This document shows positions 1 through 1,034 of a stretch of DNA of 22,605 bases, one piece after another. Position numbers and translations under genes: made by a program. The notes beneath the pieces were generated by a model that worked only from the letters and a program-made list of their open reading frames with translations, ran no database searches and was not told where the DNA came from. The DNA comes from Tolypothrix carrinoi HA7290-LM1 (GTDB lineage Bacteria > Cyanobacteriota > Cyanobacteriia > Cyanobacteriales > Nostocaceae): positions 1 through 22,605 of the forward strand of contig JAHHIK010000125.1 in the NCBI GenBank assembly GCA_019358935.1. Reading direction: 5' to 3'. How positions within the stretch are numbered: the first letter of the stretch is position 1; each line of letters starts with the position of its first letter.

Positions 1-126
1 CGCTCATGCCGTCAGGAAGTCCGCTTTTGACAAATGGACAACACATTGAGTAGCCGTGTGCGATGAAAATTGCAAGCACGGTTCCGAATGGGAGGGGTGT
101 TGCAGTAATGCACACCTCGACCCTAC
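1..126 (+). mobile_element. Group II intron, 3' end (end of domain IV, domains V and VI, 3' splice site); 5' part lies outside the window
   Basis: Domain V at 52-83 reads AGCCGTGT-GCGAT-GAAA-ATTGC-AA-GCACGGTT, with the AGC triad, GAAA tetraloop and 2-nt bulge. Domain VI at about 90-124 reads GGGAGGGGTG..TGCA GTAA TGCA CACCTCG-A-CCCT, with bulged A120 and terminal AC at 125-126. A frame ending ...AHAVRKSAFDKWTTH* (TGA 47-49) may be the end of the intron-encoded protein. Confidence 0.9.
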
Positions 127-655
127 CAGACGAGCGAGACAGATTTTGAAACGGCTGTCGGGCAGAGAGCGGCGCTATCAAACATGGTTGAACCATAACA
201 TCAGTAAATTGATTGTTCTGTCTGCACTTCAAAACAATGCCATCATTGCTATTGAAAATTTGACGGGCATAAGGGAACGAACGAATCAGCAACCTCGCAG
301 CAAGGTAGAGCGTAGGCGTAGCAATAGTTGGGCATTTTTTCAACTCCGAATGTTTCTCAGCTACAAAAGCTTGAAGTACGGTGTTGAATTGGTTGCGGTT
401 AATCCCGCGTACACCAGTCAAACGTGTGCCGAGTGCTTGCACATTCATCCCGTTCGGGGAAAGTCTTACCGTTCGGGGAAAGTATTTAACTGTGGGCATT
501 GTGGCAATTATTGCGATGCTGATGATAATGGTTCAAAAATGATTTCAATCGTTGGAGGCTCAGTAAATAGCCTCGGAGGTTCAAAGCTTTTCTGCTCTTT
601 GAGTAGTCAAGCTTTAGGGCTACTACAAAGCCCCGCCCTTCAGGGCTGGGGTTAG
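127..655 (+). CDS. tnpB: TnpB RNA-guided endonuclease (IS200/IS605 family), C-terminal part; 3' exon downstream of the group II intron
   Basis: Contains RRARQILKRLSGRERRYQ..NHNISKLIV, RuvC-II IAIENL, WAFFQLR..YK, VNPAYTSQTC, zinc finger CAEC..CGHC and RuvC-III DADDNG. The first 24 codons of track ORF 56..655 are intron domain V/VI sequence. Confidence 0.92.
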
Positions 656-680
656 TTTACAGTCAGTATCGTTGCCATAA
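555..680 (+). ncRNA. Predicted TnpB omegaRNA/reRNA scaffold with IS right end (ending GTTTAC at 660) and flank-derived guide; 5' boundary uncertain
   Basis: Hairpin GAGGCT/AGCCTC (555-574) has loop GTAAA (563-567) complementary to terminal TTTAC (656-660), a possible pseudoknot. A second hairpin AAAGCTT..CTGCTC/GAGTAG..AAGCTTT lies at about 583-615, and a subterminal hairpin CCCCGCCC-TTCA-GGGCTGGGG at 631-651. Confidence 0.7.
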
Positions 681-686
681 GTTAGA

Positions 687-1034
687 TTTTGGGTCAACAA
701 GAAGGGGGTAGGGTTGCAGGTTTCGGGTGTAGGGTGTAGTCAGAATTAGTGGGGGCTTACACCCACCACGAAGAAGGCGACCACCAAATCGGAGATTTTG
801 GTGTTCGTTGTACCCTATTGGTTCCGGGTCCTTGAGTACACAAATGCCAAGTTTTCTCATTCTTCACCCCACACCCTTGAAGAGGGTGTGGGGTGTGGGG
901 TATGGGGTGTAGGGAAAAGAGATAGCCAATATTTCTCTTTCTCCTTCTTCCCCCCACACCCTACCCCCTACCCCCTACCCCCTTCCTCCCCCCACACCCC
1001 CACACCCCACACCCTACACCCTAGTTTTGGTCAA
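687..1034. repeat. Composite repeat region: (GGGTGTA/GGGTGTG)n and (CCCCACA/CCCCTAC)n heptamers around a short structured unique core
   Basis: Opposed heptamer arrays, a 13-bp inverted repeat at 865-877/883-895, hairpins at 749-766 and 782-803, and TTTTG(G)GTCAA at both ends. Confidence 0.75.

Follow-up and report, generated by a model that had tools for sequence, protein, structure and literature searches.

The window analysed here, a 22,605-nt stretch of DNA from Tolypothrix carrinoi HA7290-LM1, is the start of contig C125 of the genome assembly (G000), and its first bases appear to pass from the end of a group II intron directly into the 3′ part of a tnpB gene. The arrangement raises two questions, namely whether a group II intron does interrupt the tnpB gene of an IS200/IS605 element and, if so, whether the intron is a passenger or a switch upon which synthesis of an RNA-guided nuclease depends. 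The reading preferred here, and considered very probable, is that a group IIB intron recently retrohomed into a conserved bridge-helix target in two paralogous tnpB-only IS200/IS605 elements, and that the result is parasitic nesting as opposed to a selected switch. The relevant features of the window are as follows.

1 to 48, forward strand: end of domain IV (3′ part of the region that holds the intron ORF in relatives), truncated where the contig begins
49 to 85, forward strand: domain V, with AGC triad at 52–54, GAAA loop at 65–68 and a 2-nt bulge at about 74–75, from the RF00029 match and the fold
86 to 127, forward strand: domain VI, including the bulged branch A (120) and the intron 3′ end (C127), from the fold and boundary tests
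128 to 655, forward strand: tnpB 3′ exon (175 codons plus stop), with the end of the bridge helix, RuvC-II Glu, zinc finger and RuvC-III Asp
548 to 660, forward strand: probable omegaRNA scaffold, with a putative 5′ limit, overlapping the last 35 codons
628 to 660, forward strand: IS200/IS605 right end, with subterminal hairpin (629–653) and terminal TTTAC ending at 660, from allele alignment
661 to 680, forward strand: right flank, the predicted guide, being the sequence directly after TCAC at the empty site of congener G001

The intron 3′ end and the splice boundary

The sole gathering-level Rfam match within the window was to the group II intron model RF00029 (Intron_gpII) at positions 49–126, which scored 48.5 bits (E 6.2e-7) against a gathering score of 40. 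Domains V and VI fold as expected, with the catalytic AGC triad and the bulged A both in place, and complete relatives of 2.7 kb share, at their 3′ ends, 88–95% identity with the segment upstream (1–48). The original prediction had set domains V and VI at positions 52–126; the Rfam match and the fold bear this out except at the 3′ limit, since the intron ends at C127.

The position of this boundary is supported by several lines of evidence. A total of 65 family 3′ ends were found, and in all 60 that were kept (at least 83% identical) the final C is present (47 ACCCTACC, 12 ACCCTAAC and 1 ACGCTAAC), followed by a base that varies freely (C in 19, A in 18, G in 12 and T in 11). Excision that includes the final C restores a single TnpB frame at locus L173, scoring 294.8 bits compared with 212 or less for excision one base to either side, and the same excision lengthens the frame across the junction at L184, L222, L231, L232, L235, L240 and L253. 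Both ends are available for 25 introns; these are mutually related, so that the counts are non-independent trials, and two of them, retained in the counts, have internal deletions and are misaligned. In this set, the base that follows the C is complementary to the EBS3 column in 19 cases (plus one G-U pair), and the C itself in only seven. Additionally, the alignment of the 5′-exon contigs from sequencing run X1 extends to and includes the base that corresponds to 127. Since C127 belongs to the intron, and since the intron-free alleles L274 and L311 read ACT CGC AGA CGA GCG, the junction lies between codons (CGC/AGA). The phase-2 junction put forward originally, with the intron ending at 126, was rejected because both frame restoration and EBS3 pairing favour 127. 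This corrects the 3′ boundary for a widespread intron family, whose members end in ACC, one base past the Rfam match.

With the end at 127, the branch A lies 8 nt from the intron terminus, which is the spacing of subgroup IIB. Assignment to this subgroup of mobile, chloroplast-like introns draws on the branch-A spacing in the window itself, and on pairing of EBS1, EBS2 and EBS3 that co-varies in the 25 relatives. The intron ends in CC (CTACC) and not in the AY of group II introns; the CC ending was found in 47 of 60 family members and AC in the remaining 13. The CC ending is therefore a family-wide variant that retains the terminal pyrimidine, in introns where the other group II features tested are present.

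The interrupted tnpB gene and its second copy

Directly after the intron, positions 128–655 form an open frame that matches Pfam PF07282 (Cas12f1-like_TNB; E 1.8e-18). As predicted, the exon is free of stops and retains the C-terminal nuclease motifs, namely the RuvC-II Glu (254–256), the four zinc-finger Cys codons (425, 434, 491 and 500) and the RuvC-III Asp (521–523); these align with Cas12f and TnpB chains, the best PDB matches, via the intact relative L265. The exon is 95% identical at the nucleotide level to L262, an allele without the window's intron, from which it differs in 18 synonymous and 9 non-synonymous codons. The differences are unevenly spread: the first 140 codons contain 27 relative to L262 and 70 relative to L265, whereas the last 35 codons contain none and one, respectively, and this tail tops the ranking for synonymous conservation among 25 alleles. 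The omegaRNA of TnpB systems is established to overlap the 3′ end of the gene, and an overlap of this kind would predict the near-invariance of the last 35 codons.

Alleles L262, L265, L266 and L328 agree with the window as far as the TTTAC that ends at 660 and then diverge. The congener G001 has an empty site, in which TCAC is followed directly by the sequence of window positions 661–697, and left flanks end in TCAC in seven of nine aligned alleles. The insertion is thus 3′ of a tetranucleotide and without duplication, and its right end has the subterminal hairpin of the IS200/IS605 family. The TTTAC end, the TCAC flanks and the empty site together indicate a tnpB-only IS200/IS605 element with TCAC as its probable target and a guide that would begin at 661. 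In close alleles the left end lies ∼110–190 nt before the start codon with no tnpA there, and the two X1 5′-exon contigs (817 and 871 nt) fit a left half of this form; three tnpA-like ORFs were detected elsewhere in G000 by motif search only. A search of G000 for TCAC followed by the 12-nt guide seed revealed no perfect self-target and two sites with two mismatches. With its ends, target and guide defined, the element provides a test case for whether active nuclease can be obtained from an intron-split tnpB after splicing. Beyond the element, tandem repeats of the heptamer type and a palindromic repeat that is dispersed in G000 (∼80 matches) occupy positions 690–1040 and 2025–2260, and are absent from the orthologous G001 site.

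A second copy of the arrangement is present in the same genome. Contig C70 ends with an intron end of 122 nt that is identical to the window from position 6 onward, followed at the same codon by a paralogous tnpB 3′ exon with 70% nucleotide and 61% amino acid identity to that of C125. The suggestion that the intron can reach other tnpB copies is upheld by this observation. It is unlikely that homing occurred only once, with recombination or gene conversion across a ∼60-nt block common to the two paralogues around the site giving rise to the second copy. Such an event could be read from a 29-nt identical run in the two exons (+7 to +35), from the 5′-exon contigs ending alike, which suggests ∼24 shared exon bases (judged from 30-nt contig overlaps), and from the mosaic appearance of L262, 95% identical downstream and ∼87% over the aligned 5′ stretch. 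However, the first six exon bases differ at three positions, and these differences would not have survived conversion across the junction; the shared block is conserved also in intron-free alleles of other genomes and therefore predates the intron.

Neither the 5′ exon nor the intron body of the C125 or C70 copies is present in the assembly, all contig ends included. In order to interpret this absence, it is relevant that the assembly has no contig shorter than 10,054 nt, and that the genes to the left of the G001 empty site (presumably psaE-like and mutM-like, going by their sequences) are missing from G000 too. Four sequencing runs were compared with L262 as reference. Run X1, possibly the source of the assembly and not independent of it, gave seven aligned contigs. 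Two, of 817 and 871 nt and sequenced to depths of 501 and 511, carry 5′ exons and both stop six letters past the junction. Another, at depth 505, has 30 intron bases ahead of the window's 3′ exon; the exon junction is spanned by none of the seven. The two 5′ halves and two 3′ halves therefore converge on one shared, collapsed sequence, the alignment covering 106–121 nt of each 5′ exon. One 5′ contig reads G-R-R-D-I-A-V-T-S in frame, just after the position of the RuvC-I Asp, and carries one deletion and one insertion that compensate for each other. The collapsed sequence presumably starts with GUGYG and the 5′ exons are probably open throughout. When stand-in 5′ exons were joined in silico to the 3′ exon by splicing at 127, in-frame products of 403–410 aa with no internal stops were obtained, in keeping with the in-frame join that had been called for. 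Upstream 5′ exons of the kind anticipated were thus located in contigs of run X1, up to the junction, but not in the assembly. Taken with the RF00029 match and the open PF07282 frame, the 5′ exons that reach the junction sustain the central claim of a group II intron inserted within tnpB of an IS200/IS605 element.

An assembly chimera was considered and rejected, since in Logan contig 7 of run X1 the 3′ exon is independently linked to 30 bases of intron. It is exceedingly improbable that the locus is an assembly artefact or a dead, 5′-truncated intron fragment unconnected to any tnpB 5′ exon. A precedent is available in contig C174 (288–605, reverse strand), where a member of the same family has lost its 5′ part, carries a second intron inside its ORF and has no tnpB upstream, and no 5′ exon of this tnpB subfamily lies at any G000 contig end; against this, the assembly retains only contigs above 10 kb, it lacks also the genes to the left of the empty site, and run X1 supplies two 5′ exons for the two 3′ exons. 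Runs X3, X6 and X7 contained related alleles and other introns among their contigs, and the exact intron-plus-tnpB junction pattern had no match in the metagenome contigs searched.

The intron family, its target and the frequency of tnpB insertion

Complete relatives of the intron are mostly ∼2.7 kb in length, start with GTGCG and encode a protein of 630–650 aa with a YADD motif. The domains RVT_N, RVT_1, GIIM and HNH were identified in the one relative scanned (L227), and the best PDB match to the intron-encoded protein of the relatives is 6ME0_C (E 8.6e-86), a T. elongatus IIB maturase. Exon positions −1 to −5, −8 and −10 to −13 co-vary with two domain I loops (EBS1 and EBS2) across the 25 relatives, with Watson-Crick pairs in 16–23 of 25 at each of 11 listed co-varying positions. 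With regard to the proposed EBS/IBS check, pairing co-varies among relatives, but in none of the 25 does EBS1 match the inferred target at five or more of six positions, the sixth column being unreliable (3/25), and pairing of the present intron with its target is accordingly a prediction. Family targets are very varied, and the EBS loops change to match them. A tnpB profile found tnpB coding sequence just downstream in four of 56 family sites; other sites were judged by eye to be transposon right ends, other introns or unrelated DNA, and none was the window's tnpB site. A right-end motif was found in 3/57 family targets compared with 8/3000 controls, a test that is uninformative because it missed the window's own right end, and right-end assignments in relatives were made by eye only. 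Family introns were seen in tnpB 3′ tails or right-end/omegaRNA regions at L227, L242, L234, L174 and L175, with an upstream tnpB match in L227, L242 and L175, and the L227 intron lies one base from the apparent end of its element.

From these relatives and from established group II chemistry, a course of events may be proposed. An intron of ∼2.7 kb with an RT-maturase-HNH gene would recognise its site by EBS1/IBS1, EBS2/IBS2 and EBS3/IBS3 pairing, and its RNP would reverse-splice into the DNA between the codons of K-G-T-R-S-T-R and R-R-A. On transcription of the element, maturase-assisted splicing would then join the exons in frame to yield a TnpB of ∼400 aa. The chances that this particular copy may still be competent to produce some TnpB in this way are put at about even.

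The target lies in one of the best conserved stretches of the gene. Among 25 intact intron-free alleles less than 90% identical to one another, the seven codons before the site ranked first of 378 windows for codon conservation and seventh of 378 for synonymous conservation. The exact 18-nt target was present in 24 of 76 related loci. An intron with this target finds more than one place to land, and the multi-copy, dispensable nature of tnpB together with its conserved target would make it a cheap landing place. The intron-free alleles that had been sought were found in abundance: all 76 related loci with a readable junction lack an intron end there, for which reason the insertion looks recent. 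A search of 388 other family genomes, in which two candidates per genome were scored, likewise revealed no match spanning intron end and exon.

A conserved 13-bp hairpin is possible within the tnpB coding sequence, in which −14 to −1 would pair with +7 to +21 and the intron site would fall at the 5′ edge of the loop. Across alleles L262–L356, 85% of cells pair (31 distinct alleles) compared with 16–45% in slid controls, although the hairpin was derived from the same sequences, with alleles filtered by a peptide motif. The pairing changes are mostly one-sided (G-U, A-U and G-C), and folding z-scores are weak (−1.8 to +0.8 in five alleles). At L264 (1–80), an internal deletion in tnpB has joined the start of the gene to its 3′ part, the point of fusion lying no more than a few bases from the target.

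Insertion of introns into tnpB is common in this genome. Intron ends lead into tnpB coding sequence in 9 of 23 cases in G000, compared with 6 of 2000 random sites, and two further cases were identified by eye on C65 and C93. Copies of a single intron account for several of these cases, so that the set corresponds to about six intron types and not to eleven events. A single intron occupies the same codon position, before N-H/R-K-L-A, in four tnpB genes on C27, C123, C146 and C151, and its identical 79-nt end is found also on C6. On C180 (8554–8630, reverse strand) a group II intron is followed by an in-frame HNH domain that is IscB-like by eye. Allele L262 (1–1370) has a different, RT-HNH-encoding group II intron in phase 0, located 130 nt upstream of the window's site and just after the RuvC-I motif.

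In the four intron-free paralogues of G000 (C24, C25, C34 and C50), the sequence immediately preceding the site departs from the target consensus. All four have frameshifts or insertions, while C24 and C50 keep open 3′ parts. An in-frame insertion of ∼12 codons, which is probably a short dispersed repeat, is common to C25 (near 64540) and C34 (near 6370), and both also have a frameshift immediately ahead of the intron target.

These data bear on the stronger form of the original reading, namely that the intron could be a selected partner, with splicing gating or lowering TnpB to the benefit of element or host, and TnpB homing and TnpA in trans keeping and moving the intron. That both interrupted copies keep open 3′ exons with C-terminal motifs while four of four intron-free paralogues are broken would suit such a partnership, but the sample is tiny and, because C24 and C50 are also open at the 3′ end, an open 3′ exon says little. 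Likewise, the intact appearance of the right end, TCAC target and flank, the tnpA-like ORFs as a source of transposase and the convergence of several intron types on tnpB are set against the empty junctions of all 76 related alleles, the lack of any intron–exon match among the two candidates scored in each of the 388 genomes, and the different intron of the 95%-identical L262. Furthermore, of the 53 tnpB loci in G000, 22 consist of one nearly complete ORF, so gating is not a general property of TnpB. A selected partnership is accordingly regarded as very unlikely. The same low probability is attached to a stricter form, a mutual dependence in which the hairpin would form only after exon ligation and then hide IBS1 and IBS2, splicing would meter TnpB, and TnpB homing with TnpA in trans would move a 4-kb composite; were it true, repeated colonisation of tnpB by several intron types within one genome would amount to a natural splicing-dependent control of RNA-guided nucleases. 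Nor is a conserved splicing gate on the nuclease indicated, given the absence of the intron from the related alleles and the many unrelated targets of its family. Recent retrohoming and parasitic nesting remain the preferred reading.

Relation to known systems

The F4 introns of the TeI3 family of Thermosynechococcus elongatus are not known to carry an ORF. According to Mohr et al. (2010, PMC2882425) they occupy a conserved site of ISEL1, an element of the IS200 family, and they resemble the present case as cyanobacterial group II introns that spread via a conserved site in a multi-copy insertion sequence. However, the TeI3 passage of that paper names no tnpB target gene, and the F3 introns that it describes are ORF-less, whereas relatives of the window's intron carry an ORF.

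The closest parallel is found in Coleofasciculus chthonoplastes, where near-identical 2511-bp RT-maturase-HNH introns lie at one codon boundary in two tnpB genes, those of IS605-1_CC and IS605B-1_CC (Kapitonov et al. 2016, PMC4810608, Fig. S9). The two genes are ∼60% identical, compared with 70% here, and independent homing was inferred; the same account mentions many further tnpB insertions at different positions (data not shown there) and raises transposition of an intron-IS composite. Both cases involve two paralogous tnpB genes of a cyanobacterium, interrupted in the sense orientation at the same codon boundary. They differ in intron size (2511 bp against ∼2.7 kb in relatives of the present intron) and in site, which is at aa 50/51 near the N-terminus in C. 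chthonoplastes; the present site is close to aa 227, in the bridge helix of a tnpB from a Cas12f-like subfamily. The arrangement is thus already published in kind (PMC4810608), and the window provides a clean, recent instance of that habit at a tnpB position other than the one detailed there. It also lends support to the route by which, as that paper proposes, a TnpB/IscB ancestor could have gained an HNH domain.

The idea that the locus is a new mirror image of IStrons is not supported, the arrangement having been published. In IStrons a group I intron encloses an IS605 or IS607 element as a stable chimera, removes the transposon from host RNA, and has a 3′ end that overlaps the omegaRNA (PMC10690162). 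The likeness extends to a self-splicing RNA and tnpB being combined in one element. Here, in contrast, the intron matches a group II model, is a retroelement with its own mobility, lies as a passenger inside the tnpB frame, leaves the right end untouched, and is absent from all 76 related alleles.

The group II intron passages of PMC10690162, PMC13565253 and PMC10055086 do not treat introns inside tnpB, and no test of splicing-dependent TnpB was found in the literature searched, which covered sources other than subscription papers and bioRxiv supplements. Waldern et al. (2020, PMC7306698) describe a general hiding of group II introns in mobile elements, those other than class C being common inside transposase genes and inside further introns; in the main text of that paper, supplementary tables aside, tnpB, IS605 and IS200 have no occurrences. 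Twintrons of the window's own intron family were observed also in genome G031, at loci L176–L178.
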